This document shows, piece after piece, positions 17,784 to 54,009 of a DNA stretch of 64,000 nucleotides. Position 1 is the first letter of the stretch, and each line of letters starts with the position of its first letter. The notes under the pieces are model-generated. The model did not search any database, was not told the DNA's origin, and worked only from the letters and a program-made list of their open reading frames with translations. The stretch is from Dehalococcoidia bacterium (lineage in GTDB: Bacteria > Chloroflexota > Dehalococcoidia > Bin125): assembly GCA_022825265.1 (NCBI GenBank), contig JAJDXE010000011.1, positions 90,204 through 154,203 of the forward strand, written 5' to 3'. Made by a program: the position numbers and the translations under genes.

Positions 17784-17804
17784 GCACAGCCGTTCTGTTA
17801 GGAT
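17784..17804 (+). promoter_or_regulatory. LexA-like box plus extended -10
   Basis: GCAC-AGCC-GTTC (one mismatch to GAAC-N4-GTTC) followed by TGT-TAGGAT. Confidence 0.45.
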
Positions 17805-17860
17805 CGGCGGCGCCCAACACGAGCAGCCAGCCGGAGCGACCCGACATGACTTCCCAAACC

Positions 17861-17962
17861 CAATCCGGACACTCCTGGAAACCCCCGGACTCAGCCGCTC
17901 TCAGCGAGACAAACACTCCCAAAATCTGGACAGATCTGGACAAATCCGGACAGATCCGGACG
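17861..17962 (+). repeat. 10-bp-period repeat block of dispersed element 1
   Basis: AATCTGGACA/GATCTGGACA/AATCCGGACA/GATCCGGACG (17923-17962) plus degenerate units at 17861-17890. Confidence 0.8.
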
Positions 17963-18032
17963 TTTTTCCGCAGGAAACTCAATCCACAGCAGCAAAACCG
18001 TCAAAATGTCGCAGAATTCTTCCCCCGAAGAC

Positions 18033-18683
18033 TCACTCCGGCTTCGGCGTCCTCGACTGCACCACGTACATCGGGTCGCTCTGGCCTTTGGCGGGGGAGA
18101 TGTCGTGCCATTGGGGTGGGTCGAACGCGCCCGAGTAGTGGAAGTAGGCGCCGACCATCTGCACGTGGCCCTCGTCGCCCATGCCCTGCCAGAGCCAGAC
18201 GGCCTTGGTCGGGAAGCAACGGTTCGAGAACGACACGATGCAGCCTCCGCCGGGCCTCAGTACCCGTGCGATTTCCCGAAAGACCTCGATCGGCTTCGTG
18301 ATGTACTGCACCGAGACCGCGATCGTGACCACGTCGAACTCACCGTCGCCAAACGGCAGCGCCGGGTCCGCATTCAGATCGTGCACGACCCATTCGGTCA
18401 GCTGCGGATTCTCGGCCAGCTCCTCGGCGTTCATCCCCAACCCGGCAACCCGATCCGATTCGAGGTCGTCGGGATAGTGCGAGACCCATGACGACATCAG
18501 GTCGAGCAGCCGGCCCTGTTTCGGCAGGAACTTAGTGTAGTGCTCGCGCAGCGCGCCGATCGCCGCGTCGTCGATGTGCGTGACGAGCCGCGGTTCGACG
18601 TAGAAGTTGGCGTCATCCGACTCGTCGGCACGCCGAAAGTGACCCTCCTCGAACGGCGGGTCACTCGGGGTATCGTCGGGCAT
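18033..18683 (-). CDS. Class I SAM-dependent methyltransferase (type 11)
   Basis: FY..PRLVTHIDD, LLDLMSSWVSH, GLGMN..EL..N, FSNRCFPTKAV. Confidence 0.92.
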   Translation of the reverse strand: MPDDTPSDPPFEEGHFRRADESDDANFYVEPRLVTHIDDAAIGALREHYTKFLPKQGRLLDLMSSWVSHYPDDLESDRVAGLGMNAEELAENPQLTEWVVHDLNADPALPFGDGEFDVVTIAVSVQYITKPIEVFREIARVLRPGGGCIVSFSNRCFPTKAVWLWQGMGDEGHVQMVGAYFHYSGAFDPPQWHDISPAKGQSDPMYVVQSRTPKPE

Positions 18684-18689
18684 CGGCGA

Positions 18690-18887
18690 TCAGAACTTGG
18701 GCGGCTTGGGCAGGATGTAGGCGGCCGACAGTCCAAGCAAAATCGCCGCCATCGCAATCCCAATCACGATGGCCACGATCTGGCCGGTGTGTAACCCGCC
18801 ACTGCCGCCCTCACCGGCAGCCATCGCCGCGCCGCCCAACAGGACGGCGGCGATGATTGCAACGGCCAGAGTCAGGGTGCGCAACAT
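18690..18887 (-). CDS. Small membrane protein (signal peptide, Gly-rich linker, one TM helix)
   Basis: 65 aa ORF filling the gap between two co-oriented genes; two hydrophobic segments. Confidence 0.65.
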   Translation of the reverse strand: MLRTLTLAVAIIAAVLLGGAAMAAGEGGSGGLHTGQIVAIVIGIAMAAILLGLSAAYILPKPPKF

Positions 18888-18905
18888 GGCGCTTGGGTCC
18901 TTCGA

Positions 18906-19352
18906 CTACATCGGGTTCAGAATCTGAGCCGCGTGGTCGGCCAGGTGCCAGGTGGCCATGGCCATCAACGCACCTGCAGGGGCCGCTGCCATGCCTTCCC
19001 CACCGGCCGACTTGCCCAATTCCTCGTCCTGCACGTAGTTGACCTTGGAGTCGAACGCCGCAGCGATGGCGTCGAGTGCGGCCAGCGCGTCAGCCGGGTC
19101 AGAGAAGTCGGTGCTGCTCAGCGGGTTCTCCGGGCCGTCGTAGCCGCAGGCCGCGCAGATGCCGTTGGCGAACATCATCTCCGCCGGAATCACGTGCTCG
19201 GCGACCTGGCGCGGCGACCAGCCGGCCTCGCCGTCGTCCGCCGTTCCCTTCGCCGTCTCCCAGTTGCCGTGCGCCGCGGCGCCGGCGATCGCGACCTTGA
19301 GCGCCGCGCGGGCGCCGGAGATTCCGGCGCGCAGATCGTCTGCTTGTGACAT
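18906..19352 (-). CDS. DinB-like four-helix protein
   Basis: WSPRQVAEHV and WHLADHAAQI His motifs; start ATG 19352 after AAGGAG. Confidence 0.8.
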   Translation of the reverse strand: MSQADDLRAGISGARAALKVAIAGAAAHGNWETAKGTADDGEAGWSPRQVAEHVIPAEMMFANGICAACGYDGPENPLSSTDFSDPADALAALDAIAAAFDSKVNYVQDEELGKSAGGEGMAAAPAGALMAMATWHLADHAAQILNPM

Positions 19353-19475
19353 GGTCTCTACTCCTTGGTTGGGGTGGATTCGAATTGTTCTCAAGCAGCA
19401 TAGGACAGCCCCCGACTACCCTGACCCTGACTTCGCAAACCTGAACGACCAGTCATGTAACGGGAGGAACCGGCC

Positions 19476-20513
19476 ATGGCATTCGGCATCGGACTGATCG
19501 GCGCGGGCGGGAACCAGAAGCTGCGCCACATCCCCGGCTTCCGCGAGATCGACGACGTGGAGATCTTCAACGTCGTCAACCGCTCCCGTGAATCGGGCGA
19601 GCGCGTCGCCGCCGAGTGGGACATCCCCCGTGTTTCGGAATCGGTCGAGGAGTTGCTCGCCGACCCCGACGTGGACGCCGTCAGCATCGGCACCTGGCCC
19701 TACAAGCACCTCGAGTACACGCGCGCGGCGCTCGAAGCAGGCAAGCACGTGCTCTGCGAGGCGCGCATGGCGAGGAACGCGCAGGAGGCGGAGGAGATGC
19801 TCGCCGTCAGCCGCGCGCATCCCGACCTGGTCTCGCAGCTGGTGCCCGCGCCCTTCGACTTCCGCCTGGGCAAGACGATCAAGCGGCTCTGCGAGGACGG
19901 CTCGCTGGGCAGCATCATCGAGGTCCACCTGACCCTGCTCAACGGTTCGGGTCTGGACGACTCGGGACCGCTGCACTGGCGTCACCGAAGCGACTACTCC
20001 GGACATAACATGATGCAGCTCGGCATCTTTAACGAGACCATTCAGCGCTGGCTCGGAGACACGGCCCGCGTCACCGCACACACTCGCACGTTCGTGCCCT
20101 CGCGTGTGGACGAAGAGACCGGCGAACGCTACAACATCACCATCCCCGACAGCCTGGGCATCTTCGCCGACATGGCCAACGGCGCGCGCTGCACATATCG
20201 GGTCAGCGCCGTCACCGAGGGAGCGCCGCAGCCGCCGAGCATCGACATCTACGGCTCCGAGGGCCGCCTCCACTGGCGCTTCGGCGATACCGGCGAGTGG
20301 GCCCACCACGGCGAGGATTTGCAGACCATCCATCCCGATCCCGGTACCGCGCACGACTGGCAAGTCGAGGCCGACTTCATGAACTCGGTCCGCAATGGAG
20401 CCCCGGTCGAACTCACGAACTTCGCCGACGGAGTCCGCTACATGCGCTTCACCGACGCCGTCTGGGATTCGTGGAACAGCGGTCAGAGCCGGGAGATCGA
20501 GCCGCTGACCTGA
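19476..20513 (+). CDS. Gfo/Idh/MocA family oxidoreductase
   Basis: IGLIGAG, DPDVDAVSI, GKHVLCEARM. Confidence 0.92.
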   Translation: MAFGIGLIGAGGNQKLRHIPGFREIDDVEIFNVVNRSRESGERVAAEWDIPRVSESVEELLADPDVDAVSIGTWPYKHLEYTRAALEAGKHVLCEARMARNAQEAEEMLAVSRAHPDLVSQLVPAPFDFRLGKTIKRLCEDGSLGSIIEVHLTLLNGSGLDDSGPLHWRHRSDYSGHNMMQLGIFNETIQRWLGDTARVTAHTRTFVPSRVDEETGERYNITIPDSLGIFADMANGARCTYRVSAVTEGAPQPPSIDIYGSEGRLHWRFGDTGEWAHHGEDLQTIHPDPGTAHDWQVEADFMNSVRNGAPVELTNFADGVRYMRFTDAVWDSWNSGQSREIEPLT

Positions 20514-20525
20514 CCAACGTGGTCG

Positions 20526-21479
20526 CTAAAGCTCCAATAGCCAGTCTACGAGGATCCGATTCAGCTCTTTCGGCTCTTCCTGCTGGGTCCAGTGGCCGCA
20601 CTCTTCGATGTGACCTCGGGAAAGGTTGGGGATCCACTCCTCCATGCCCTCGGACATGGAGGGCAGCAGGACTCCGTCCTTGCCTGCGGTGACCATCAGC
20701 GCGGGCTGGGTGATGTCCTGGCCGTCGACGGCGGCGCCCCACTCCCAGTTGCGGCCGTGGTTGCGGTACCAGTTGAGTCCGCCGCGGAAGCCGGTCTGTT
20801 CGAACGCGCTGACAAAGGCGTCGAGGTCTTCCTCGGTCAGCATGATCGAGCGTTCGGCGTCGTCGGGCAGGCCGACCAACAGGCCGCCGCGTTCGCGCAC
20901 GCCGGAGGTCATCCCGATCACGTCGAGCCGGTCCTCGGGCTTGGAGGTCCGCAGCATCAGGGTCATGGTGCGCCTCGCGTTGCCGCCGAGTTCCGCCTCG
21001 GCGACGCCCTCGTCCTGGAAGTAGAGCTGATAGTCGAAGCGGCCCGGGTCGATCTTCATCGCCTCGAGCGGGTTGATCGGCGGTCGACGGCCGGCCGGCG
21101 TGTTGATCCCGGCGACGGCGTTGCAGCGCGTCGGATGGTGCTGGGCCATGTTCCAGACCACCGCGCCGCCCCAGTCGTGTCCGACGAAGACGGCGCTCTC
21201 GATCTCCAGCGCGTCGAGCAGCGCGACCATGTCGGCGCAGATCCGCTCCTGGGTGTAGTCCTCGATGTTGGGCGGTGCGTCAGTGTCGCCGTAGCCGCGC
21301 ATGTCGGGTGCGATGGCGCGGAAGCCCGCCTCGGCGACGGCCGGCAGTTGGTGCCGCCACGAGTACCAGAGCTCGGGGAAGCCGTGGCAGAAGACCACGG
21401 CCGGACCCTCGCCGGCCTCGGCGACGTGCATGCTGATTCCGGTGGAGAGGTCGATTTGGGAGTGAGTGATGTTGGTCAT
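20526..21479 (-). CDS. Epoxide hydrolase-like alpha/beta hydrolase
   Basis: HGFPELWYSWRHQ, GHDWG nucleophile Asp, LNWYRN, GHWTQQE. Confidence 0.92.
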   Translation of the reverse strand: MTNITHSQIDLSTGISMHVAEAGEGPAVVFCHGFPELWYSWRHQLPAVAEAGFRAIAPDMRGYGDTDAPPNIEDYTQERICADMVALLDALEIESAVFVGHDWGGAVVWNMAQHHPTRCNAVAGINTPAGRRPPINPLEAMKIDPGRFDYQLYFQDEGVAEAELGGNARRTMTLMLRTSKPEDRLDVIGMTSGVRERGGLLVGLPDDAERSIMLTEEDLDAFVSAFEQTGFRGGLNWYRNHGRNWEWGAAVDGQDITQPALMVTAGKDGVLLPSMSEGMEEWIPNLSRGHIEECGHWTQQEEPKELNRILVDWLLEL

Positions 21480-21588
21480 GGCCGTCCTCAGGTGCTGTCA
21501 AATGGGCGCAGAGACTAGGTCTGGCACTCGCCTGATCATACGTAGTGTCAGGGCCTGCGGATACCGTAAGCCCAACAGGAGAACGCCG

Positions 21589-23568
21589 ATGACCATTGAC
21601 ACACCAAACTGGGCCAACACCAACCCCGGCGACATTGAGCGCGGCGTCAACGACGCGATTCGCACGGTCGAGCGATTGGCCGACGAACTGGTTTCCGTGC
21701 CTGACGGTCGGCGCAGTTTCGAGAACACGGTGCAGCCCCTGGATGAGATCAGCAACGTCTTCACGCTGGCCTCCGGCCGCTACGGATTTCTCTCGCAGGT
21801 CTCAGCCGACGAAGAACTGCGCAACGTGGCCCATCAGCAGGAGGAACGCCTGAGCGTGTTCGCAGCCGGCCTCGGATTCCGCGAGGACATCGACCGGGCG
21901 CTCAAGGCGTACGCGTCGCGGGCTGAGCTGGAGGCGCTGCCCGATGACGCGCGCCGGCTGCTGGAGTTCGCCTTGCGCGACTACCGGCGCAACGGCCTCG
22001 ACCTTCCCAAGCAGACGAGAGACGAACTGAAATCGCTGCAGGAGCGCTTGGTCGGTCTGGGCATTCAGTTCCGCAAGAACATTGACGACTATGAGGACCA
22101 CATCGAAGTCAGCCGCGATGAACTCGACGGGCTGCCCGATTCCTACATTGAGCGACTGCGCACAGTGGAAGACGGCGGCGCCGTTCGCTACAAGATCGGT
22201 CTCGACTATCCGGAGTTGCACCCGTTCCTCGATAGCGCGCACGACGGGGAGCTTCGGAGAGAGCTGTTCCGCAAGAATCACAACAAGTCGGCGGACACCA
22301 ACATCGAGCTCCTGGAAGAAGCGCTGGGCGTTCGTTCGTCGATGGCCGCGCTACTCGGCTACGAGTCGTGGGCGGCCTACGCACTCGAAGTCAAGATGGC
22401 GAAACAGTCAGACGCCGTCCTGGAGTTCCTGCTTGATCTTGAAGAACGGCTGCAGCCGAAACTGGCGAGCGACCTTGCCAGGCTTTCAGATGAACAAGAA
22501 CGCCGCACCGGCGTGGGCGGCCCGGTCGACATCGCCGACTGGCGCTACTACACGAACCAGGTGATCCAGGAGCAATACCAGGTCGACCCGTTCGAGGTGG
22601 CGGCGTACTTCCCGCTCGATGCCGTGCTCGATGGGATGTTTCGCGTCTACGAGGAGTTGGTCGGCGTGCGATTCGTCCGCCGCCCCGACGTGGTTGATTC
22701 AGCTTGGAACGAGGATGCTCAGCCGTTTGACATCGTCGATCCGTCCGGCGGAGAAGCGTTGGCGCGGTTCTACATGGACCTCTACCCACGGCCGGGAAAG
22801 TTCGGACACGCGGCGGCGTTCACCCTGCGCGGCGGACGACGCCTGGCCGAAGGTGGATACCAGCGACCGATCTCGGCGATCGTCGCCAACTTCACCAAGC
22901 CGACAGAATCATCTCCCTCGCTGCTGAGACACACGGAAGTGGTGACGTTGTTCCACGAGTTCGGTCACATCCTGCACCAGACGCTGACGACTTCGCGTTA
23001 CACGCGGTTCAGCGGGACGCGCGTGGAGCGCGACTTCGTCGAGGCGCCGTCGCAGATGCTGGAGCACTGGTGCTGGCAGCCTGACATGTTGAGCAGCTTC
23101 AGCCGTCACTACGAGACCGGTGATCCGCTGCCGAAATCGTTGATCGATCGGATGATCGAAGCCAAGCACACTTCGTCGGCGATTGCGACGCTGCGGCAGG
23201 TCTACTTCTCCCGGCTCGATCTCGCCTACCACTCCGAGTCGGGACGCAGCACCGACGAGCTCGCGCGCGAGCTTCATCCGATCACGGGCTTTCCGTTTCC
23301 GGAGGACACGCACTTCCAGGCCGGGTTCGGACATCTCTTCGGCTATGACGCAGGGTACTACGGCTATCTCTGGTCGCGTGTGTTCGGCGACGACATGTTC
23401 ACCCGCTTCGAGGCCCCGGGCACGTCGGTGTCGGGCATCGGCTCGGAGTATCGACAGCACATCCTCGAACCGGGCGGCACCGCCGATGCTGATCGGTTGA
23501 TCCACCGCTTCCTCGGTCGCGAACCGAACGCCGATGCATTTCTGCGCGAACTCGGCCTCTCGACGTAA
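21589..23568 (+). CDS. M3A (thimet-like) Zn oligopeptidase
   Basis: FHEFGH, DFVEAPSQMLE, GYYGYLWS; start re-called to ATG 21589. Confidence 0.94.
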   Translation: MTIDTPNWANTNPGDIERGVNDAIRTVERLADELVSVPDGRRSFENTVQPLDEISNVFTLASGRYGFLSQVSADEELRNVAHQQEERLSVFAAGLGFREDIDRALKAYASRAELEALPDDARRLLEFALRDYRRNGLDLPKQTRDELKSLQERLVGLGIQFRKNIDDYEDHIEVSRDELDGLPDSYIERLRTVEDGGAVRYKIGLDYPELHPFLDSAHDGELRRELFRKNHNKSADTNIELLEEALGVRSSMAALLGYESWAAYALEVKMAKQSDAVLEFLLDLEERLQPKLASDLARLSDEQERRTGVGGPVDIADWRYYTNQVIQEQYQVDPFEVAAYFPLDAVLDGMFRVYEELVGVRFVRRPDVVDSAWNEDAQPFDIVDPSGGEALARFYMDLYPRPGKFGHAAAFTLRGGRRLAEGGYQRPISAIVANFTKPTESSPSLLRHTEVVTLFHEFGHILHQTLTTSRYTRFSGTRVERDFVEAPSQMLEHWCWQPDMLSSFSRHYETGDPLPKSLIDRMIEAKHTSSAIATLRQVYFSRLDLAYHSESGRSTDELARELHPITGFPFPEDTHFQAGFGHLFGYDAGYYGYLWSRVFGDDMFTRFEAPGTSVSGIGSEYRQHILEPGGTADADRLIHRFLGREPNADAFLRELGLST

Positions 23569-23656
23569 TCCAACCGTAGTCGACTCGGCCGATTCCTGAC
23601 TTGCGCAGCAGGTACACTGCCGACGAAACTGGGACGCAGTTGCTTCGGCGAGGAGA

Positions 23657-24877
23657 ATGAACATGCCCGACATTGGCTCGATCGAGCAAGCCAAGCAGCG
23701 CTTTGGCGAACTGCTCGAGGCTCAACAGACACGGGTGGACGCGATCAAGGCAGAGGGCGAGCCGACCGACTTCACCAAGCTCGATCACATTGAGATCGGC
23801 GTGCTCGGTGGCGACGGGATCGGCCCGTCAATCGCTCACGAATCACAGCGAGTGCTTGAGACATTGCTGGAGGATCAGGTCGCATCGGGCCGAGTCAGCT
23901 TTCGCACCATCGATGGTCTGACGATCGAGCGTCGAGCTGACGAAATGGCCGCGATTCCGGAGGGCGTGCTCAAAGAGATCCACGAGTGTGATGTCACCCT
24001 CAAGGGTCCGACCACGACGCCGGAGCAGGGCGACGGCTGGCCGAACATCGAGTCGGCCAACGTGGCGATGCGCAAGGTGCTTGACCTGTACGCGAACGTC
24101 CGGCCGGTGCGGGTGCCGGCAGAAGGGATCGACTGGACCTTCTTCCGTGAGAACACCGAAGATCTGTACGCAGTCGGCTCCGAGGGTTTCTCGCTGGGCG
24201 ACCTGAACATTGACTTCAAAATCCTCTCGAATCCAGGCTCCGAACGGATCATCCGCGCCGCCTTTGAGTATGCCAAGAACAATGGCAAGGACTCGGTCAC
24301 GATTGTGACCAAGGCCAACGTGGTCAAGACGACCGACGGCGCGTTCCTCGACGCGGCGCGCAAAGTGGCCGAGGACTTTGAAGGGATCGAATGGGAGGGC
24401 TGGTACATCGACATCATGACTGCGAAGCTGGTCGACCCCAAACGTCGGACCAACTTCCAGGTCTTCGCGCTGCCCAACCTCTACGGCGACATCCTGACCG
24501 ACGAGGCAGCGGAGTTCCAGGGCGGCGTCGGCACGGCCGGCGCAGGCAACATCGGTACCAAGACGGCGATGTTCGAGGCGATCCACGGCTCGGCCCCGCG
24601 CATGGTCCGCGAGGGCCGCGATATCTACGCCGACCCGTCTTCGATGCTGCGGGCCGGAGCGATGATGCTCTCGCACATCGGCTTCCCCGAGCTCGGCGGC
24701 AAGCTCGACAAAGCGATGGACCTTTGCGGCCAGTACGAGAAGAAACTCGTGATGACCGGCCGAGACACCGGCGCGACGACGGCCGAGTTCGGAGACTACG
24801 TACTGGCGACGGTGAACGACTCCACGCTGGACGACCGCTGGACGACCGCGATCGAGGCCGTCCGCGCCGGGTCGTAG
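23657..24877 (+). CDS. Isocitrate/isopropylmalate dehydrogenase family protein (possibly isocitrate dehydrogenase)
   Basis: GDGIGP, KGPTTTP, SANVAMR, RENTEDLY, KANVVK, NLYGDILTD, FEAIHGSAP. Confidence 0.88.
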   Translation: MNMPDIGSIEQAKQRFGELLEAQQTRVDAIKAEGEPTDFTKLDHIEIGVLGGDGIGPSIAHESQRVLETLLEDQVASGRVSFRTIDGLTIERRADEMAAIPEGVLKEIHECDVTLKGPTTTPEQGDGWPNIESANVAMRKVLDLYANVRPVRVPAEGIDWTFFRENTEDLYAVGSEGFSLGDLNIDFKILSNPGSERIIRAAFEYAKNNGKDSVTIVTKANVVKTTDGAFLDAARKVAEDFEGIEWEGWYIDIMTAKLVDPKRRTNFQVFALPNLYGDILTDEAAEFQGGVGTAGAGNIGTKTAMFEAIHGSAPRMVREGRDIYADPSSMLRAGAMMLSHIGFPELGGKLDKAMDLCGQYEKKLVMTGRDTGATTAEFGDYVLATVNDSTLDDRWTTAIEAVRAGS

Positions 24878-24885
24878 GTCGACCC

Positions 24886-37855: not shown

Positions 37856-38503
37856 TTATGTGCCCAGCTTAAACGGTGGGTAGCGGTCGGTGATGAGGAG
37901 GAAGCCGTAGGCGCTGATCCTGAGCCAGTAGCGGCTGACGCCGACGATGAAATCGAAGAGCGGTCGCGGGTACCTGGCGGTGAAGAGGATGGCGAACCAT
38001 GCACCGACGATGGCGAGGATCGAGAGTACGAGCAGCACGACGCCGACGATGTAGTGGGGAATCAGCAGCAACCACTTGATAATCGGCAGGAAGCGGTTGA
38101 GCTCCTCGGCTTGCGGGTAGTCGAGTTCGAGATGCACCGCCTGCTCTTCTTCAGTCGAGGGATACTTGTCGGTCAGCAGGTCGAGATAGGCAGCCACCCG
38201 AGCCTGAAAGCGCGTCAACTCGAGCAGGAAGTCGAACCACCAGCGCGGATACTTGCGCCGGAACAAGAGCATCAGCACCAGCGGGAGGAAAAAGGCGGCG
38301 CCGAAGACGCCGTTTGCCGAATCTCCATCGATCAAGCCCTCGGCGGCCAGTGAAATGAAGACGGCGGGCGCTACGGGTAAGAGTGCGGCAAGGATCCAGA
38401 TGGGGATGCTGAAGGGAATGCGCAGCAAGGTGGACAGCCGATCGAGTCGATCCGGGTAGTCGACCTCAAGTCGTGCGGGATATGCGTCGGGTTGATACTC
38501 CAT
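37856..38503 (-). CDS. DUF4389 membrane protein (two internal repeats)
   Basis: Duplicated LF..KYPR..FDF....R..RV.AY..LLTD.YP. Confidence 0.88.
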   Translation of the reverse strand: MEYQPDAYPARLEVDYPDRLDRLSTLLRIPFSIPIWILAALLPVAPAVFISLAAEGLIDGDSANGVFGAAFFLPLVLMLLFRRKYPRWWFDFLLELTRFQARVAAYLDLLTDKYPSTEEEQAVHLELDYPQAEELNRFLPIIKWLLLIPHYIVGVVLLVLSILAIVGAWFAILFTARYPRPLFDFIVGVSRYWLRISAYGFLLITDRYPPFKLGT

Positions 38504-38560: not shown

Positions 38561-38717
38561 TGTTCGGTGTTCAGTGTTCAGGCGAATTTTTTTCTTCGGC
38601 CCAGAAATCCGCTGATCCCCAGTGTTTTACGAGAGACGTGTGTTCAGGTTGTTCAGGTTTGTTCAGCCATGTTCAGCGGCATCTAACCTTGATCAGCCAT
38701 GTTCAAGGCGTGTTCAG
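38561..38717 (-). repeat. Periodic TGTTCAG repeat block of dispersed element 2
   Basis: TGTTCAG-like units at 38641, 38650, 38660, 38670, 38690, 38700, 38711 and a 7-bp-period triplet at 38561-38581. Confidence 0.8.
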
Positions 38718-38836
38718 CCGACATGTTGCGGTCCTGTTCGGTGGTGAACGGAACCGTGGGGACCTGGCTTGCGGCTGCTTCGCGTCGGCTGGAGGACATC
38801 GACACCGCTTTCGTTGTTCGTGAACAGGCCGCTCTT

Positions 38837-38873
38837 AGCGTATACGAACTCACGTTCATTCGTACTAACGTTC
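38837..38873 (-). promoter_or_regulatory. Tandem LexA (Cheo-type) boxes adjoining a -10 element
   Basis: GAAC-TCAC-GTTC (38846-38857), GTAC-TAAC-GTTC (38862-38873), minus-strand TACGCT at 38842-38837. Confidence 0.65.
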
Positions 38874-42476: not shown

Positions 42477-42477
42477 G

Positions 42478-46342: not shown

Positions 46343-46422
46343 AGAGTCGCTAGCTGATACGCTGATTGCATCCGAACCAAGTGGCAGCGCGTCCTCCGCC
46401 GCCCTTCTGATAGGAATCCAAC

Positions 46423-47457
46423 ATGGTCACCGCGATTGAGAACCCGGGCCTCAACCTTGACTGGCTGAACCTGGAAACCGATGACGAGTTCGAGATCAAG
46501 GCCGGTCGCAAGGGTGTCACCCTGCAGTCGATCAACCAGCGCATGGCCGGCGTCGAAGGAGTCGATCAGGCCGACTGGCGCTCCTTCGCGCCGCGCGGCA
46601 TCGAGGCCGACCCGCGCTCCAATGCCCACGCGCGACAGTACCGCGACAAGGGCGATGTCTGGTCCGAGTCGGCGATGTTGCTCTACGAAGAGGCGCTGCA
46701 GCGGCAGTGGTCCTCGGCGCGCGACATCCCCTGGGACACGATCGGCGACCAGCCGGACGACATCGAGAAGGCGATGTGCACCCTGTGCACCTTCCTGACC
46801 CAGGTCGAGTTCATCGCCGGCGACGTGCCCGGCCGCTTCCTCGAGTCGGTCCACCCTGACTTCTTCGAGTCGCAGCTCTTCCTCGGCACACAGCTCATGG
46901 ACGAAGCGCGTCACCTCGACGTGTTCCGCAAGCGCGTGTTGGTCAACGGCGGCGGCATGTCGCCGGCCGGACTCGGCGCCGTCGGGCTGCTCGCCATCGA
47001 CGACTTCACCGAGATGACCGCCATCCTTCACCTTTTCGCCGAGGGTCTGGTTCAGTCGCTCTTCCGCATGGGCGAGCTGATCGGTCAGAACGAGGCCGAG
47101 AAGCGCATGTTCCGCCTCTCCGCGCAGGACGAGTCCCGCCACCTCGCGTTCGGCGTCACGCACACCAAGTACACCGTCGAGACGCAGCCCTGGCGCAAGG
47201 AAGAACTGCACCACTACCTCGACATCAACGAGACCGTGCAGAACACCCAGGCCGGCCTGACCACGAACCCGATCACGGGCGAGGCCCTGGCCGTGCTCGC
47301 TGGCGGCGGCATCGAATACCTCGACGAGGGCTACAACCTGCTCATGCTGATGCGCAAGAAGCAGATCAATGAGTACTACCACCGCCTCCAGGTGGTCGGC
47401 CTCGGCGACCGGCTCGACCGGATGGCGCCTGAGTTGCGTGAGCTGATCACCGTCTAG
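46423..47457 (+). CDS. Ferritin-like diiron protein with intact carboxylate ligands
   Basis: E(QVEF), DEARH, E(FAEG), DESRH. Confidence 0.85.
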   Translation: MVTAIENPGLNLDWLNLETDDEFEIKAGRKGVTLQSINQRMAGVEGVDQADWRSFAPRGIEADPRSNAHARQYRDKGDVWSESAMLLYEEALQRQWSSARDIPWDTIGDQPDDIEKAMCTLCTFLTQVEFIAGDVPGRFLESVHPDFFESQLFLGTQLMDEARHLDVFRKRVLVNGGGMSPAGLGAVGLLAIDDFTEMTAILHLFAEGLVQSLFRMGELIGQNEAEKRMFRLSAQDESRHLAFGVTHTKYTVETQPWRKEELHHYLDINETVQNTQAGLTTNPITGEALAVLAGGGIEYLDEGYNLLMLMRKKQINEYYHRLQVVGLGDRLDRMAPELRELITV

Positions 47458-47479
47458 AGCCCCGCCTGGCGGGACGCGA

Positions 47480-47622
47480 CCAGGACAGTCCAGGACCATT
47501 CATGCGGATTCTCGGAGTCACACTGCCGAAATCTGGATGAGTCTGGACAATTCTGGACGAATCTGGACAAACCTGAACACCTGAAGGCGCGATCCGGCCC
47601 CGCCGACCTGAACCACACGGGA
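47480..47622 (+). repeat. 10-bp-period repeat block of dispersed element 3 (truncated)
   Basis: ATCTGGATGA/GTCTGGACAA/TTCTGGACGA/ATCTGGACAA/ACCTGAACAC (47531-47580), CCAGGAC x2 at 47480/47490, ACACGGGA at 47615-47622. Confidence 0.78.
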
Positions 47623-47629
47623 GATTCCC

Positions 47630-48904
47630 ATGCCAGCCCTCTCACCCGCCCAGAAAATGCGCGCCCAGGTGCGCGGTTGGTCCCCTGAACTGGTTGAGCG
47701 TGCGGAACAGTCCGCTGCATCTGGCCGGCAGATCGACAACATCCTCAACGTGTCGATCGAGCCCAACCGAATCGCCAAGTGGCTCGACTTCATCGAGTCC
47801 AATCCCGATCACCCCTCTGCGCAAGCGCAGTTCATCATGTTCGAGGACGGCGGCGAGACGGGCCTCAAGCCGACACCGTCCGAGGACGGTATGCGTCTCA
47901 GCGATGTCGACATCGGCTCCTACGGTCACGTGCCCGACGTGTGGAACTACCGCAACGACCTGCCCCGAGGCACGCGGCCCGTTCCCGGCATGTACATGCC
48001 GGCCGGCTACGCGATCTACGACCGCACAGAGGTCTGGGCCGACGGCGTCGCCGACCTCTACGAGGACGCCATCCGCGACCGCTGGATCCCGGCTACCGAC
48101 CTCGACTGGGAGAACCGCGAGGAACTCTCGCCCGAGGTTGAGCGGGCCACCGGGCAGCTCTGCGCGATTTACTCGACGTACGGCATCGCCGAGCAGAAGA
48201 TCATTTCCAAGTGGCTGGAGGAGATCTCCTACGGCTTCCACGAGGTCAAGCTCTTCCTGGCGACGCAGGTCTACGACGCCGGCCGCAAGGTCGAAGTGCT
48301 GCGCAAGCGCGCGCTGCATGGCTCCGGGGTCATCGGCAAGGCGCCGCTCTCGGACGTTTCCGAGACTTGGTACAGCGCGCTCACCTTCACCGACATGATC
48401 ATCGCGCTCGATGTGGTCTACAAGTCCTACGAGCTGACGGCCTTTGAGTGCGCGACCGACTGGGCCCGCTCAGACTTCGACCGCGATCTCTTCGCCCGCC
48501 TGGCCGAGGACAGCAAGCGGCATCTCCAGTACGGACTCAAGCACCTCGAGTGGTACAACCGCTACGCAGAGCGCGCCGACCTCGAGTTGCCGATCTTCTT
48601 CATCAAGGCTGAAGGCGGTCTCTCGTCCGAGCTGGCGCAGTCGCCGCTCGAGCGCGAGGCGCTGGCAGTGCTTTACGCCGACGGCGTCGAGCGACTCGAT
48701 GCCGGCGTGGAAGGGCTGCGCAAGCTGCGCGAGAAGCAGTACCACGACTACCTGCACCGATTGCACGAGCACGGCTTCGACCGGATCGGCGAGACGGCCA
48801 GCATCCTCGGTCTCGTGACTCAGGACCCGCTGCTCAAGGCGCTCAACCCAGAGGCGCTGGTCGAGGGCGCGGCCGCCGGTACGACCGCGACCGACCGCGA
48901 CTAA
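47630..48904 (+). CDS. Ferritin-like paralogue with degenerate metal site
   Basis: Aligns to 46423-47457 (LYE.A....W, LFL.TQ..D..R, LRKR) but has DAGRK and DSKRH. Confidence 0.82.
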   Translation: MPALSPAQKMRAQVRGWSPELVERAEQSAASGRQIDNILNVSIEPNRIAKWLDFIESNPDHPSAQAQFIMFEDGGETGLKPTPSEDGMRLSDVDIGSYGHVPDVWNYRNDLPRGTRPVPGMYMPAGYAIYDRTEVWADGVADLYEDAIRDRWIPATDLDWENREELSPEVERATGQLCAIYSTYGIAEQKIISKWLEEISYGFHEVKLFLATQVYDAGRKVEVLRKRALHGSGVIGKAPLSDVSETWYSALTFTDMIIALDVVYKSYELTAFECATDWARSDFDRDLFARLAEDSKRHLQYGLKHLEWYNRYAERADLELPIFFIKAEGGLSSELAQSPLEREALAVLYADGVERLDAGVEGLRKLREKQYHDYLHRLHEHGFDRIGETASILGLVTQDPLLKALNPEALVEGAAAGTTATDRD

Positions 48905-48941
48905 CCGATTCCGCAATCAGCCTCGCCCGTATCATTGCGTG

Positions 48942-49736
48942 GTGACCTCGCCTGAAATCGGACTGAACCATGAGATCGACGGGCCGTCCGACGGGCGGCC
49001 CGTGCTGTTTGTGCACGGAATCCTGACCTGCCGCGCCCATTGGCTGCTCAATCTGCCCGCCTTTCACGACGCCGGATTCCGCAGCATCACGGTCGACCTT
49101 CTGGGCCACGGCTCCTCGCCGTCCCCCGAGGATGAGGCGTCCTACCATCCCGACCGATACATCGATCACTTCACTGCGCTCAGGGAGTTGGTCGGCGCTG
49201 AGCGCTGGTATGTCGTTGGACAGTCGCTGGGAGCGGCGTTGACGCTCAACTACGCCATGTCGCGTCCCGAGGAGGTCATCGCCCACGTCGTGACCAACTC
49301 ACACTCGGCCTTTGGCGAACTCGAGCGAATCCGCAACCCTGAGGCGGCGCAAGCACGAGCGCAGGGGATGATGGACGGCGGGATCGACGCGGTGATGCGC
49401 CACCCGCTCAATCCCCGCCGAGCGCGGGCGTTCAGCGATGCTCAGCGCGCCGAGTTTGACGACGCGATGCTGCTCAGCGATTCCACAGGGATCGCCCGGA
49501 CGATGATGTGGACTTCGCCGCACACGCCGCTGCGTCATCGACTGCCCTCGAATCCGGTCGACACCCTGCTGGTCGCTGGTGATCGCGAGGAGGCATTCGT
49601 CTCGGCCCGGGAATGGGTCGAGGAGAACGCCGCCAACTTCCAGATCGAACGGGTTTCCGCTACCCACGCCGTCAACATCAGCGCCGCCCAAGATTTCAAT
49701 AGGATCGCAATAGAGTTTCTCAATCAGTACTCATAG
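48942..49736 (+). CDS. Alpha/beta hydrolase
   Basis: FVHG, DLLGHG.S, GQSLG, THAVN; start GTG 48942 follows TATCAT-N6. Confidence 0.88.
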   Translation: MTSPEIGLNHEIDGPSDGRPVLFVHGILTCRAHWLLNLPAFHDAGFRSITVDLLGHGSSPSPEDEASYHPDRYIDHFTALRELVGAERWYVVGQSLGAALTLNYAMSRPEEVIAHVVTNSHSAFGELERIRNPEAAQARAQGMMDGGIDAVMRHPLNPRRARAFSDAQRAEFDDAMLLSDSTGIARTMMWTSPHTPLRHRLPSNPVDTLLVAGDREEAFVSAREWVEENAANFQIERVSATHAVNISAAQDFNRIAIEFLNQYS

Positions 49737-49763
49737 TGAGCGTGAGCGTGCGGAGGGTGAACA

Positions 49764-51698
49764 GTGGAGGAGGCGCTTGACTTCACGCCACTCCTACTCG
49801 TCAGCATCCTCGCAGTCGCGGTTCCATTTGTCGCCTGGAGACTGACCGGCGGTCTGGTTCCAGCGGTTGTCGGGGAAGTGCTGGTTGGCATCCTCTTTGG
49901 CGAGCCGGTCCTGGGGATCATTACGCGCGACAACGAGTGGCTGACGTTTCTCGGACTGTTCGGGTTCGCCTATCTCATGTTCCTCTCCGGACTTGAAATC
50001 AACCTCGGTCTGCTGGGTCAGTCGCCAGGCCGACGTTGGTACGTCCCAAGAATTGCGCTGCGGCATCCACTGATCTCGGGCATGGTGTTGCTCGTCCTGG
50101 TCGTGGTCTTTACGTACCTGGGCTTGCATCTGATGAGCACCGTGGACTTGATCGACACCGGCCAGATTCCAATGTTGCTGTTCATCCTGATCGCCACCGC
50201 GGTCGGGGTCATCGTTCCGGTGCTGAAGGATCGGCCTGACCTGGGGCGGATGGGCCAGTCGCTGTTGGTCGGTGGGTTTTTGCTGGAGTTTGTCGCCATT
50301 GTTGGTGTCGGGGTGGTTGCAGGACTTGAGCGAGAGGGGATCAGTTGGAAGATCTTCCTCATCCTCTCGGTTCCTGCTGCGTTGGTGTTGATGGTCTGGC
50401 TATCGCGATATGGCAGTGGTCGATTCCCGATCATTCCGCGCACGATGCATGAGTTGGCGCAGACTTCATCTCAGCTGAAGATTCGCGCGTCGCTGGCCTT
50501 GCTGGTCGTCTTTGTTGCCCTGTCTCAGGTGGCAGGGACGGAGATGGTGTTGGGGGCGTTCGTGGCCGGCCTGGCGGTGACGGTGGTGTCGCCACGTCAT
50601 GGGTCTTCGCTGCGAGGCAAGCTTGATGCATTGGGCTACGGCTTCTTCGTGCCGATCTTTTTCATCCACGCCGGCGCGACCCTGCATCTGGGAGAGGTCT
50701 TCAACTCGGTTGACTCGCTGATCCTCGTACCGGTGCTGCTTCTGGTCGCGTTTGGGGCCAAGCTGGCGCCAGCACTGATCAGCCTGGTGCCCGCGTGGGG
50801 CGTACGCCCGGGGTTGGCGGGCGGCTTCCTGTTGAGCGCCAACCTCTCGTTGGTGCTCGCAGCCGGCGCGATCGCAGAGGACCTTGGCGTCATTGACGAC
50901 GGGCTGCACGGCGCGTTGCTGCTGATGGCGTTGTTGACGACGGTGCTTGCTCCCTTGATGTTCTCTTCAATCGCCGGTCGGGCGCCGGTGCAGGTGGATG
51001 GGCACACATTGATCGTGGGCGGAGGGGATCTGGCGAAGACGCTGGTGGAGCGCTTGATGGCTGCCGGGCGTCGAGTGATTGTGTTGGATCGGGATTCGGA
51101 CGCGGCAGCGAAGTGGGATCCGGTTGGAGTTGAGAGCGTGGTTGGCGATCCTAGCGACGCGCTGACCCTGATCAGCGTGCGGTTGTTGCAGACTGACGTC
51201 GCGGTGATCGTTGATTTCGATCACTCGGATCAGGTCGTCGAGTATGCGCGGTCGATGCGGCGCATCCACCCCACGTTGCGCGTGGTGACGTGGGTTTCGG
51301 AGCCAGACGGCCGGTTTGACCATGTCGAGATCGATGCGTACTCGCTGTCCGATGTGACGGCGCTGGCGCTTGAGGAGGCTGTGCTGCGTCCGGGGTTGCA
51401 TGCCGCTCGGAACGACCCGGAGTCCGGTTTGGTGGAGGTGGAGATGCTGAATCGGGAGATGGATGGTCAGACGTTGCGCGACATCGACTTTGAGGGGGAC
51501 GTTCGCGTGCTGGTTGTGATGCGCGATGGGGAGTCGTCGGTGGCGACTGGCGACACCACGATCTTCCTGCGCGATCGACTGACGTTGGCCGGCGCACCTG
51601 AGGCAGTTTCGGCGATGAGCAGCCGGTTCCAGCAGCGCAGCCGGCATCGTTGGCTGATTGATGTTCGGACGGCTCGCCGATCAGATGGTGAGATCTAG
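49764..51698 (+). CDS. CPA2 cation:proton antiporter with TrkA-N/TrkA-C domains
   Basis: LMFLSGLEI, LGAFVAG, GYGFFVPIFF, C-terminal IVGGG Rossmann and RCK-C. Confidence 0.9.
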   Translation: MEEALDFTPLLLVSILAVAVPFVAWRLTGGLVPAVVGEVLVGILFGEPVLGIITRDNEWLTFLGLFGFAYLMFLSGLEINLGLLGQSPGRRWYVPRIALRHPLISGMVLLVLVVVFTYLGLHLMSTVDLIDTGQIPMLLFILIATAVGVIVPVLKDRPDLGRMGQSLLVGGFLLEFVAIVGVGVVAGLEREGISWKIFLILSVPAALVLMVWLSRYGSGRFPIIPRTMHELAQTSSQLKIRASLALLVVFVALSQVAGTEMVLGAFVAGLAVTVVSPRHGSSLRGKLDALGYGFFVPIFFIHAGATLHLGEVFNSVDSLILVPVLLLVAFGAKLAPALISLVPAWGVRPGLAGGFLLSANLSLVLAAGAIAEDLGVIDDGLHGALLLMALLTTVLAPLMFSSIAGRAPVQVDGHTLIVGGGDLAKTLVERLMAAGRRVIVLDRDSDAAAKWDPVGVESVVGDPSDALTLISVRLLQTDVAVIVDFDHSDQVVEYARSMRRIHPTLRVVTWVSEPDGRFDHVEIDAYSLSDVTALALEEAVLRPGLHAARNDPESGLVEVEMLNREMDGQTLRDIDFEGDVRVLVVMRDGESSVATGDTTIFLRDRLTLAGAPEAVSAMSSRFQQRSRHRWLIDVRTARRSDGEI

Positions 51699-52549
51699 GC
51701 GGAGCGGATCGTGGCTTGCTCGGAGCCGATGCCGGCGAGGTGTCCGAGGTAGATCGGGACGAGCGGCAATACGCAGGGGCTGATGAAGCTGACGAATCCG
51801 CCGGCGAAGGCGATTGCGGCGGAGCCTGCGTTGAGGTCGAGCATCTGGGTGGAGGAGCCGTCTGAGCCGGCGAGGACATCGACTCCGAAGCTGCCGAGGG
51901 CCTCGTTGAGGACGACGACGCGGTCGAGCGCGATGAGCATGCCGACGAAGACGAGCAGCACGCCGGAGACGACTCCGATCAGCGGCATCCAGCGGTTGAG
52001 CTTGCGCAGGAACTGGGTTGAGGCTCCGAAGGTGGCACCGACGATCAGGAAGGGGATGCCGAGTCCGGCGGCGTAGCAGATGAGCAGGATGATGGCCTGA
52101 ATCAGCGAGGCCGAGTCGAGGGCGAGCACGAGGATGCCAGCGAGGATGGGTCCGACGCAGGGAGTCCAGCCGACGGAAAAGGCGACGCCAACGACGAGCG
52201 AGCGTCCGTAGTCGGCGGCCGCGCGAGCGCGAGACGTTTCTCCTGCCGGGGCGGCAGACGATGCGCCGCCGCCGGGTCCGCTGCTGGGTCCACCGACCTG
52301 GAAGCTGCGGTAGAGCAATGGGATGGTGATCACCTCGGCCAGGTGCAGACCCAGGATGACCAGTAGCACTCCGGCGACGCGCTGGAACCAGATCAGCTCT
52401 TCCTGGAAGGCAGAGCCGAGCGCACCCAGCAGTGCTCCCAAGGCGACGAAGACGACGCTGAATCCGAGAACGAACGAGGCCGAGTGGAGGAACACGACTC
52501 TGCGGGCTGTGTTCTGTCCGCCGCCTACGGTGCCGGTCGCAATCGCCAT
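51695..52549 (-). CDS. ccdA: Cytochrome c biogenesis protein CcdA, circularly permuted
   Basis: FVLGFSVVFVALG, GWTPCVGPIL, YAAGLGIPF; the AF.GG.VSFISPCVLPLVP.Y motif is at the C-terminus. Confidence 0.88.
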   Translation of the reverse strand: MAIATGTVGGGQNTARRVVFLHSASFVLGFSVVFVALGALLGALGSAFQEELIWFQRVAGVLLVILGLHLAEVITIPLLYRSFQVGGPSSGPGGGASSAAPAGETSRARAAADYGRSLVVGVAFSVGWTPCVGPILAGILVLALDSASLIQAIILLICYAAGLGIPFLIVGATFGASTQFLRKLNRWMPLIGVVSGVLLVFVGMLIALDRVVVLNEALGSFGVDVLAGSDGSSTQMLDLNAGSAAIAFAGGFVSFISPCVLPLVPIYLGHLAGIGSEQATIRSA

Positions 52550-52608
52550 GTGCTCAAGTGTAGGTCAACTCTGGGCACGATGAGGCTGCTCACGCATCTC
52601 GCGAGGGT

Positions 52609-53487
52609 TTAGTGTGACACGCCGGCGTCCTCCTCGGCTGAGAGCAAGGTGGCCATGACGGACTTCATCCCGTAGCCGCGGTTCCTGGCGCGGTTGAGCA
52701 TGTCGCTGGCGGCGGAGGCCATCGGCGATGGGATGCCCTGCTCGCGCGCGACCTGGACGGCGAGGGAGACGTCCTTGGCGGCCCACTGGAGGAAAAACGA
52801 GGCGTCGTCGAAGTCGCGCTCGAGGAGCGTGGGCATGTTGCGGACGTAGTTCTGGGCCGAGGCGACGCTCATCACCTCGTAGGCCTTGTGGGCGTCCAGG
52901 CCTGCAGCTTCGGCGATCACGGTGGCTTCGATCAGGAGCTGGATGGAGCTGATGCTGACCATGTTGTTGGTGATCTTGGTGAGCGCGCCCATGCCGAGCT
53001 CGCCCATGTGGAAGACGTTGTTTCCGATGCACTCGAGTACGGGCCTGTACTTCTCGAAGGCGGCCTCATCACCGCCGACCATGACGGCGAGGGTGGCGTC
53101 GATGGCACCCTGCACGCCGTTGGAGACGGGTGAGTCGAGGAAGGTGACGCCGTGTTCGGCGGCTCGCTCGGCGAGCAGCCTGACGGTCGAGGGCAGGTTG
53201 GTGGAGAGGTCGAAGCAGACGAGTCCTGGTTCTGCGCCTTCGAGGATGCCGTCGGCGCCGCGGAGGACGGCGGTGACTTCGGGCGGACCGGGCAAGGAGG
53301 TGAGGACGACCTCGGACTGTGCGGCGACCTGGGCGGGGGATTCGGCCCAGATTGCGCCGAGTTCGATCAGGTTGGCGGCGTGTTCCTCGACGAGGTCGTG
53401 GACGACGACTCGGTGTCCGCCCTTGAGCACATTCGCGCACATCGGGTTGCCGATCTTGCCTACGCCGATGAAACCCACGTCAGACAT
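52609..53487 (-). CDS. 3-hydroxyisobutyrate dehydrogenase-family NAD(P) oxidoreductase
   Basis: GFIGVGKIGNPM, FLDSPVSNG, LAVMVGG, KITNN, KD. Confidence 0.92.
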   Translation of the reverse strand: MSDVGFIGVGKIGNPMCANVLKGGHRVVVHDLVEEHAANLIELGAIWAESPAQVAAQSEVVLTSLPGPPEVTAVLRGADGILEGAEPGLVCFDLSTNLPSTVRLLAERAAEHGVTFLDSPVSNGVQGAIDATLAVMVGGDEAAFEKYRPVLECIGNNVFHMGELGMGALTKITNNMVSISSIQLLIEATVIAEAAGLDAHKAYEVMSVASAQNYVRNMPTLLERDFDDASFFLQWAAKDVSLAVQVAREQGIPSPMASAASDMLNRARNRGYGMKSVMATLLSAEEDAGVSH

Positions 53488-53568
53488 GTCCCACTCCTGA
53501 GTGATTGACCGAACGGAGAGTTGCTGAGGCGCAGGCTAAGGGCTGTTCGGGCATCGCTGAGGCGGCGG

Positions 53569-53755
53569 GTTCAGGTTTCAGCAAGAATTTTTTTCGGGCC
53601 GATCAGCGGGGCGTGTTGCACATGAAGTCCCGTGTTTTACTGGTGATCGTGGGTCTTGAGGCGACATAACGCTTTCAGCTTTTTTCAGGTTTTTTCGGGT
53701 TTCTTCAGTCGATCGTTGTTCGGGTTTGTTCGGATCTGTTCGATTTTGTTCGGAG
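53569..53755 (-). repeat. 10-bp-period repeat block of dispersed element 4
   Basis: TTTCAG/TTTCGG at 53673, 53683, 53693; TGTTCG at 53717, 53727, 53737, 53747; shares GAATTTTTTT and GTGTTTTAC with element 2. Confidence 0.8.
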
Positions 53756-54009
53756 TTGAACGGTCCATGTCCTGGTTTTTCGGCGCGAAATCGTGCGATG
53801 TTGGTGGTGTGTTCGATGCGGCGCGCCTGAGCATTGGGCTTCCGTTCAGCGACGCCTTCGTCGGGCGTCGGCGTCTTCTAAGGAACAGCGTACAGGCGTA
53901 CGGAATACACTGAGAGTCAAGTGGATTGCAGTACCGACGGCGCGGGTCAGACGGGTCGAACAGGTCGTGTGGAGGATTCGTAGTCGAGAGTCACGGGTAT
54001 CCTGCGTCG

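Follow-up and report, generated by a model that had tools for sequence, protein, structure and literature searches.

The DNA considered here (hereafter the window) is a stretch of 64,000 nucleotides, positions 90204-154203 of contig C10 in a Dehalococcoidia genome (G000; 2.89 Mb, 64% G+C, 16 contigs, 98.8% complete), and four of its intergenic regions carry copies of a repeat-rich cassette that is the subject of this report. A preliminary description, made from the sequence of the window, had noted repeats with a period of about 10 bp in these four gaps, and Tandem Repeats Finder detects period-10 tandem arrays in each of them. The repeat cores also read as first described, being TCYGGAC in copies 1 and 3 and CTGAAC/CCGAAC (element strand) in copies 2 and 4, and copy 3 does mix the two, its TCTGGAC units passing into CCTGAAC. 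The distal motifs previously recognized as common to copies 2 and 4 correspond to three parts (palindrome, A-run and mini-array) of a module found throughout the genome. The parts of the four copies, and the co-oriented genes that two of them serve, are as follows.

17784-17804, plus strand: head of copy 1, a 7-of-8 match to the box discussed below, GCACAGCCGTTC (17784-17795), followed by TAGGAT (17799-17804)
17846-18030, plus strand: body of copy 1, with an ATG at 17846, degenerate TCCGGAC units from about 17862 and four TCYGGACA units at 17922-17961
17922-17961, plus strand: array of copy 1 (Tandem Repeats Finder; 3.8 copies, 89% matches)
About 17987-18002 and about 18011-18022, plus strand: decayed palindrome-like and A-run-like remnants of copy 1, respectively
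37856-38503, minus strand: gene served by copy 2, a DUF4389 protein (Pfam), starting 60 bp past the module
38561-38637, minus strand: module core of copy 2, with a degenerate palindrome at 38614-38637 (nhmmer E=1.1e-22)
38561-38581 and about 38584-38596, minus strand: mini-array CTGAACACTGAACACCGAACA and A-run (element strand) of copy 2, respectively
38641-38666 and 38660-38719, minus strand: arrays of copy 2, phased CTGAAC(A) with period 9-10 (Tandem Repeats Finder)
38683-38799, minus strand: short open reading frame (ORF) of copy 2, 38 codons, starting at 38799 and stopping at a TAG within the arrays
38836-38873, minus strand: head of copy 2, strict boxes GAACGTTAGTAC (38873-38862) and GAACGTGAGTTC (38857-38846), then GTATACGCT
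47530-47568, plus strand: array of copy 3 (Tandem Repeats Finder; 3.9 copies)
47530-47627, plus strand: copy 3, a short form, with TCTGGAC units passing into CCTGAAC at 47530-47578 and a second CCTGAAC at 47606-47613
Immediately 5' of the ATG at 47630, plus strand: right palindrome-arm remnant of copy 3, ACACGGGAGATTC; this copy has no head box
52609-53487, minus strand: gene served by copy 4, a 3-hydroxyisobutyrate-dehydrogenase-like protein (Pfam), starting 66 bp past the module
53569-53651, minus strand: module core of copy 4, with palindrome 53627-53651, A-run about 53584-53598 and mini-array 53569-53583 (nhmmer E=6.5e-16)
53716-53758, then 53673-53708, minus strand: arrays of copy 4, CCGAACA units followed by CTGAAA units
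53890-53920, minus strand: head of copy 4, strict box GTACGCCTGTAC (53901-53890) with TTGACT (53920-53915) upstream

Copy 3 is a partial match to the module model (nhmmer E=5e-5). The end of copy 1 coincides with the stop of a convergent methyltransferase gene, and we read this copy as a decayed, arrays-only member without a co-oriented downstream gene.

A genome-wide family built on one module

The four loci are members of a lineage-restricted family with about 35-40 non-coding cassettes per genome. An nhmmer model of the 125-nucleotide module core, a scan of the kind that the preliminary description had proposed, extends the family across G000 well beyond chance similarity, giving 53 matches at E<=1e-3, 42 of which extend over 80 or more model positions. 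When CYGRAC cores spaced by about 10 bp are chained, the same genome yields 48 clusters of three or more units, and a search for the palindrome centre recovers 26 full modules.

Read along the element strand, CCGAACA units give way to CTGAAC or CTGAAA units that often end in CTGAACAAACCTGAACAACCTGAACAC. Then, 3' of these arrays, comes a 25-bp palindrome of 10-5-10 form, GATCTCCAGT-AAAAC-ACTGGAGATC, followed by about 20 variable bases, GAAAAAAATTC and finally CCTGAAMACCTGAAM. The full cassette thus runs from a head through a short, unconserved ORF, the arrays, the palindrome, the A-run and a two-unit mini-array to a co-oriented gene. There are two module subtypes, in which the upstream and downstream repeats switch together between CTGAAC and CTGAAA, and a TCTGGACA-type subfamily ending in AAACCTGAACACCTG takes in copies 1 and 3. 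In 4 of the 32 aligned modules the central five bases of the palindrome are inverted while the arms are intact.

The earlier suggestion of a multicopy dispersed element outside the standard feature classes is borne out, the family being genome-wide and no Rfam family accounting for it. At gathering score, Rfam reports nothing in the window except one tRNA (tRNA-Gly, 6081-6152), and an Rfam scan of fifteen sources gave no match at E<=0.1. Other dispersed palindromic repeats, for example of the CCCCGTGCTTGACACGGGG and GGGGGGAGATG...GAGGGGG types, are packed into these long gaps as well (e.g. G000 C14:6064-6748, C6:54505-55532 and C15:187294-187440) and also occur inside a small box-headed gene in relatives.

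Orientation and composition were assessed with our own crude gene calls for G000 (2,467 ORFs, 88% coding). A co-directional gene lies downstream of 35 of the 42 modules, mostly 24-176 bp away, and modules between same-direction neighbours are sense in 22 cases and antisense in 2 (19 versus 1 when gene-borne copies are left out). The sense strand of the module is rich in A and C (A 33%, C 31%, G 21%, T 15%), compared with 19% A, 18% T, 31% G and 32% C in control 5' regions, and its predicted folding as RNA is weaker, at -0.23 versus -0.36 kcal per nucleotide. The downstream genes scanned (20 of the 24 that lie within 200 bp, plus two in the window) encode, among others, UvrB, an HhH-GPD glycosylase, a DinB_2 protein, thymidylate kinase, aminotransferases, luciferase-like monooxygenases, transporters and NuoB. 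A shared functional theme was considered and rejected, since these products span repair, nucleotide, amino-acid, lipid, transport and respiratory functions.

The module encodes the linker of an HTH/SEC-C protein family

Module DNA also serves as coding sequence, for the disordered linker of a multicopy HTH/SEC-C gene, a relationship that is new here. The preliminary description had proposed looking for full-length copies with a real gene, and such copies exist: at six loci the module lies in frame within an ORF of 224-285 amino acids, and two further copies are cut by contig ends, making eight in all. The N-terminal HTH region of the family reads M-I-S/T-P-R-R-R-R ... ATVHADL-K/R-LLE. The arrays then encode NLKKPE or LNKPE, the palindrome IPSKTLEI, the A-run EKNS and the mini-array ENLK or EHLN, and a SEC-C zinc motif followed by C-terminal helices is present in three of the six complete paralogs.

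Pfam and PHROG return only weak HTH matches for these proteins. A profile search collected 245 relatives at E<=0.001, which carry only generic names (SEC-C or HTH domain proteins of Chloroflexi), and the module-encoded stretch is retained in homologues as NLKKPE...IPSKT-EI...EKNS-ENL. An AlphaFold model built on a 76-row alignment predicts a helical HTH domain at residues 1-136 (predicted local distance difference test score, pLDDT, above 90), a disordered module-encoded middle (pLDDT about 50) and, at the C terminus, two confident helices. Searching PDB and BFVD with this model gave no fold match at E<=0.001, the HTH of about 50 residues aligning locally only, and no longer fused relatives of the HTH domain were found. 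Three of the six complete paralog genes converge on a tRNA gene, and the genes otherwise found next to the six full copies have housekeeping functions.

A second multicopy HTH family, with an N-terminus like PNPARRARILQAQELRQQGLTLRQIA and a long low-complexity tail, occurs in G000 at C3:143552-144925, C3:179610-180695, C13:27439-28398 and C11:15129-16154. In the first of these, CCGAAC-type 10-bp arrays together with a half-palindrome make up the coding DNA of the tail, which means that in-frame DNA resembling the cassettes is not limited to a single HTH family.

The phased-repeat cassette family and its tie to this orphan HTH/SEC-C gene family are previously undescribed; no description of either was found in the full-text literature searched, supplements not covered.

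The sister genus and the distribution of the family

In the sister genus, represented by genome G103, the paralog linker is encoded by a different repeat, CCGAACAACC, with core CCGACCAGATAAG. BLAST places a 131-nucleotide stretch of this linker at about 35 G103 loci (93 matches), and these keep the layout of head, ATG, arrays and a core repeated one to four times, and a co-oriented gene follows in four of the seven loci inspected. The repeats of gene linker and cassette change in step between the two genera.

The G103 heads are more uniform than those of G000. The pattern GTGATACCRT-N-AGAAC occurs 27 times (0 for the reversed control), 4 times before full genes and 23 times before cassettes, with arrays just downstream in at least 19 of the latter. 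These cassettes have the gene's ATG and its first 17 coding bases, the ATGCCCACCTCC start, before running into their own common leader and the arrays, and they are truncated relatives of the gene unit. Because they share one common deletion junction and near-identical heads, they have multiplied as cassettes. A 3' tail motif is found at only 5 of the 27 loci. No such truncation is visible in G000, whose heads are too diverged.

Sampling 151 genomes from the class, we found matches to the module model in six: G000, all four other members of its genus (from one to at least 22 matches each) and one sister-genus genome with a weak match. The HTH/SEC-C gene family is present in five of the 151, the same genomes as the module, and both are confined to one family. 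Only one module occurs in the genus member that has no HTH/SEC-C gene. Among 185,579 species genomes the exact palindrome is found in 38 stretches, all from Dehalococcoidia/Chloroflexota metagenome-assembled genomes.

Gain and loss at orthologous sites

Empty orthologous sites, which the preliminary description had proposed to look for, were found for copies 2, 3 and 4, for the copy before uvrB and for one full gene copy. At the copy 2 site, the gap between the GNAT and DUF4389 genes is 6-38 bp in 6 of 18 genus members and 590-1,095 bp in 7; of three filled sites that were read, two hold other module-type cassettes and one unrelated DNA. At the copy 4 site, the gap measures only 54-102 bp in 9 of 20 genus members, compared with about 440-570 bp, and in 7 it holds about 530-605 bp of DNA unlike the copy 4 cassette. 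The alignment spans the copy 3 gap in 10 genus members, and 8 others have a shorter gap of 32-115 bp. At uvrB, the gap is 30-54 bp in nine species read (one of which, G014, has a box directly before the gene) and cassettes are present in seven.

The site of a full gene copy (G000 C15:187444-188133) is likewise variable, being a gap of 7-9 bp in four species and elsewhere occupied by the orthologue (in one orientation or the other), by a different HTH paralog or by an unrelated box-headed gene of about 105 amino acids. The last of these (MPNPYHFRA... to ...EDDDDPL) lies at this site in four species (L203-L206), reversed in one of them, is headed by a strict or near-strict GAAC-N4-GTWC box and matches no Pfam or PHROG family.

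The seven orthologous uvrB leaders, when aligned, keep the arrays, palindrome, A-run and mini-array while their spacers vary freely, and the palindrome is the best-kept block. The sequence yAGAACnCATGTnC followed by TAnnAT is kept in six of the seven, with an ATG or GTG about 35 nucleotides later in five. This motif-by-motif conservation between variable spacers argues that at least the uvrB cassette copy is functional. In one relative (locus L102, G008 C1:2308543-2312411), an IS1595-like transposase ORF lies just upstream of the uvrB cassette head, at bases about 135-1217 on the minus strand.

Cassette heads and the LexA-type box

Many element-bearing gaps have a box of the form G[AT]AC-N4-GT[AT]C adjoining TAnnnT, roughly 100-400 bp upstream of the module, with a GGAG-like site and an ATG after a further 35-50 nucleotides or so. 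GAAC-N4-GTTC, the Cheo box, is the LexA operator of Gram-positive bacteria and Dehalococcoides, and the preliminary description had given copies 1, 2 and 4 of the window heads composed of a box related to it and a -10 element. The boxes are there (two strict in copy 2, one strict in copy 4, a 7-of-8 match in copy 1, none in copy 3), but a simple sigma-70 consensus scan of these three copies returned no promoter-like site. Terminator-like matches in the same three copies are at chance level. The short ORFs that follow the heads have a ribosome-binding site and, as first reported for the window, no conservation between copies.

Gibbs sampling of the heads settled on the arrays and not on a head motif, after which a fixed pattern served to score the box. 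In G000 there are 63 strict boxes, 27 of them in intergenic DNA: 10 boxes in 35 element-bearing regions (19.3 kb) and 17 in 1,068 others (316 kb). A match of at least 7 of 8 positions followed by TAnnnT is present in 13 of 38 distinct heads, compared with 31 of 762 oriented control regions and a mean of 1.6 for shuffled heads. The box is thus about 10-fold enriched at the elements, as had been anticipated, yet such heads belong to only about a third of the copies. Many boxes have GTAC or GTGC as their second half-site, and the position of the box relative to the -10 varies between loci and genera.

G000 has a lexA gene (LexA_DNA_bind match at C2:83110-83280), and 60 bp before it lies the box GAACGTTCGTTC, of the same form as the element boxes. 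The recA gene has only a 6-of-8 match, no box was found at uvrA or dinB in G000, and a search for RuvA_N gave no match. The textbook SOS gene uvrB reaches its box through the cassette head; the box is kept in six of the seven aligned species, and a like box stands directly before uvrB, with no module, in two further genomes (G032 and G014). Given the enrichment of the box, the box at lexA itself and the partial coverage of the heads, LexA control is a reasonable proposal for about a third of the copies, and SOS control of cassettes is plausible.

Two further box-associated features of G000 are recorded here. Three copies of a gene of 111-116 amino acids (C9:92522-92872, C6:137894-138244 and C12:50085-50420) each begin 45-52 bp past a strict box, two of them starting MSALNATNAI.... 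At C12:334438-337000, a canonical GAACGGTCGTTC box, with TAATAC after it, lies between a large serine recombinase gene and a divergent XRE-type HTH gene; this is probably an integrated element carrying a switch of SOS type.

DNA-level and RNA-level features of the module

The 10-bp phasing, corresponding to one helical turn as initially proposed, is real. The non-coding RNA option raised at the same time finds no backing in covariation, with 78% of palindrome stem cells pairing against 77% in shuffles, or in Rfam. RNAalifold predicts no consensus pair in the module alignment, and the model made from it is accordingly sequence-only. The phasing, the A-tract, the conservation of the palindrome as sequence and its inverted centres make the module look like a duplex docking site for a dimer together with same-face repeats. 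An RNA-level role is nevertheless left open by the strand asymmetry and the orientation.

Other features of the window

Just upstream of copy 1 and near a tRNA-Leu gene, the plus-strand gene at 15649-17358 encodes a 569-residue AIPR (abortive-infection-type) protein with an Mrr-like nuclease domain, in a stretch of lower GC (0.545 over 16-18 kb) that looks like a small defence islet. The tRNA-Leu (GAG), at 18775-18846 on the minus strand, was called by ARAGORN and is unlisted in the Rfam gathering-score scan. At 54026-54062, a CAG/CAC triplet repeat of 12 copies lies at the 5' end of the called frame of a CoA-transferase gene, whose true start is probably downstream of the repeat, because relatives match only from about 54061.

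Explanations for the cassettes

The observed anatomy, copy number, orientation bias, kinship with the gene linker, presence and absence at orthologous sites and conservation at uvrB are, in our view, best explained if the elements are gain-and-loss-prone cassettes that combine a promoter and leader with a protein-docking site and are truncated relatives of the HTH gene family. We put the probability of this explanation at about one half. A cassette inserted between two genes would give the downstream gene a promoter of its own, possibly damage-responsive, and would add a long leader whose duplex form could serve as a phased docking platform. The dimer palindrome, the same-face direct repeats and a bend at the A-tract would most likely be bound by the HTH paralogs, and scattered genes, uvrB among them, might in this way be brought under common control. 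More speculatively, the HTH/SEC-C paralogs and the cassettes may form a single two-part mobile regulatory network, transposase-less or domesticated, in which the protein binds and perhaps helps to copy its own linker-encoding DNA, the cassettes install damage-responsive promoters and docking arrays before host genes such as uvrB, and both parts co-evolve across genera; we offer this extension as a tentative idea.

Several observations weigh against the docking-cassette explanation. The 20 scanned genes and the two in the window that follow cassettes have no theme in common, and the sigma-70 scan was empty. No recognisable transposase, recombinase or RAYT (REP-associated tyrosine transposase; REP, repetitive extragenic palindromic) is attached to the family, and the full genes have housekeeping neighbours. 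At three loci the ends inferred from empty sites show no terminal inverted repeats, and the possible target duplications are inconsistent and diverged, at 5 bp (copy 2), about 10 bp (copy 4) and about 11 bp (uvrB). Furthermore, an nhmmer model of the gene starts matches only the eight gene copies of G000 and none of its cassette heads; with no detectable homology between the two kinds of head in this genome, it is the module and the sister genus that carry the relation of truncated relatives. That gene and module occur together is in part trivial, since the gene includes the module, and the kin genomes are non-independent samples. Finally, gene conversion (concerted evolution) could hold modules alike without any function.

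Much of the same evidence might be read without a role in the cell, the cassettes being selfish deletion derivatives of a small mobile HTH gene unit, comparable to miniature inverted-repeat transposable elements (MITEs), that would spread by a mechanism dependent on the host or on the HTH protein, with orientation and position reflecting which insertions were tolerated. Their presence and absence at orthologous sites fits this view, as does a gap that, between species, holds nothing, HTH paralogs in either orientation or an unrelated box-headed gene; the single deletion junction and near-identical heads in G103 and the company of other repeats fit it as well. We nonetheless regard it as improbable, although deserving of serious attention, because selfish copies would hardly be expected to keep the uvrB leader motif by motif in seven species as its spacers diverge, or to lie sense to the flanking genes in 19 of 20 freely orientable cases. 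Moreover, no inverted termini, consistent target duplication or transposase-like domain was found, and the G000 heads are unrelated in sequence save for short motifs. A different kind of assembly on DNA is suggested by phased repeats, palindrome and A-tract inside the linker-coding part of a gene for a DNA-binding protein, an arrangement that parallels ori lambda and plasmid iterons as far as the cited passages describe them (PMC5043065): the modules could be replication, partition or packaging sites (iteron/ori-like or pac-like) for an initiator- or small-terminase-like HTH protein. The nearest ESM Atlas clusters of the N-terminal domain, mostly viral, of unknown function and with a score of 0.91, provide a lead only. 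With about 40 oriented copies immediately ahead of unrelated genes, six full copies that lack replication, partition or phage genes as neighbours, no matches in G000 to terminase_6C, the HK97 capsid (Phage_capsid) or Phage_portal, and no significant fold match to small terminases or initiators, this idea is highly improbable.

Two further accounts place the function elsewhere than in docking. The cassettes might act after transcription, as an unstructured A/C-rich leader that serves as a ribosome standby site, translation enhancer or platform for an RNA-binding protein, with arrays that stop upstream translation. The strand asymmetry, the sense orientation, the weak predicted folding and the usual distance of about 25-175 bp to the start codon all suit a leader of this kind; in addition, three CTGAAM units at 10-nucleotide spacing present TGA in all frames, and the palindrome of copy 3 has GGGAGA at the position expected of a ribosome-binding site. 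Exact 10-bp phasing and a palindrome with inverted centres are, by contrast, signs of duplex DNA recognition, there is neither an Rfam family nor covariation, and the composition could be inherited from linker-coding DNA, such that we consider the RNA-level account unlikely. The full reading of the preliminary description, that the whole element is a LexA-controlled, DNA-damage-inducible unit of the SOS regulon, appears less likely still. The enriched box, lexA's own GAACGTTCGTTC, the kept box-plus-TAnnAT head of the cassette-served uvrB, the module-free boxes before uvrB in two genomes and other small box-headed genes at the same hot spot in relatives all point in its direction. However, no more than 13 of 38 heads have a good box followed by a -10, GTAC half-sites are common among the boxes, a proper box is missing at recA, uvrA and dinB, and the placement of box and -10 differs between loci and genera. 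The box could serve another dimeric HTH protein, the paralogs included, and the phased arrays themselves are not LexA sites.

If the docking-cassette explanation is correct, scattered genes of an abundant, uncultured Chloroflexota lineage, including the repair gene uvrB, are supplied with promoters and leaders by a portable cassette, itself related to DNA that codes for a DNA-binding protein. This would be a concrete and testable case of regulatory rewiring through mobile non-coding DNA, in which one sequence serves as both binding-site array and protein linker, the two changing together from genus to genus. An orphan HTH/SEC-C family whose 245 relatives have generic annotation would gain a candidate DNA target. 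We also note that the cassettes can break contigs and give rise to false ORF calls in genomes of this kind.

Comparison with known systems

The head box resembles Cheo-box LexA operators in having the same palindrome form, in its occurrence at lexA and before uvrB, and in abutting a -10. It departs from them in its degenerate second half-site (GTAC, GTGC), in its absence from recA, uvrA and dinB, and in that the heads belong mostly to accessory cassettes.

REP sequences and bacterial interspersed mosaic elements (BIMEs) are dispersed intergenic palindromic units with RAYT transposases. The cassettes are likewise dispersed palindromic units, maybe partnered by one protein family. In contrast, the Y1 (RAYT) transposase domain PF01797 has no match in G000, and the cassette palindrome is one part of a larger, oriented unit dominated by direct repeats. 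The BOX elements of Streptococcus pneumoniae consist of boxA, a variable boxB and boxC, and Correia, ERIC and RUP are similar modular repeats. With all of these the cassettes have in common a modular build, a variable number of internal units, an intergenic position near gene starts and no coding capacity of their own, whereas the cassette units are 10 bp long and helically phased, compared with tens of bases, show no stem covariation and are tied to a protein gene that holds the same DNA in frame.

In the passages of the source cited, ori lambda within the O gene and the iterons are described as helix-phased repeated binding sites beside an A+T-rich stretch (PMC5043065). The likeness lies in phased repeats within the coding sequence of a DNA-binding protein; the differences from the systems as described there are some 40 gene-oriented chromosomal copies, the lack of replication genes nearby and a protein outside the known initiator families. 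Putative mobile promoters are similar promoter-like sequences upstream of unrelated genes that can rewire regulation, according to the portion of that report drawn on here (PMC3575422). Compared with that portion, the conserved part in G000 is a leader module and not a promoter, the heads share only the box and the -10, and the cassettes are far longer and internally repetitive.

MITEs are similarly short, non-coding, multicopy and variably present at orthologous sites, and they too are kin to a longer gene-bearing unit with which they share a 5' end and internal repeats, a relation clearest for the cassettes in G103. The cassettes differ in having no terminal inverted repeats or consistent target duplication and a parent gene with no recognisable transposase domain. 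They differ also in what they keep, namely a phased array and a palindrome set in strong sense orientation to the next gene.

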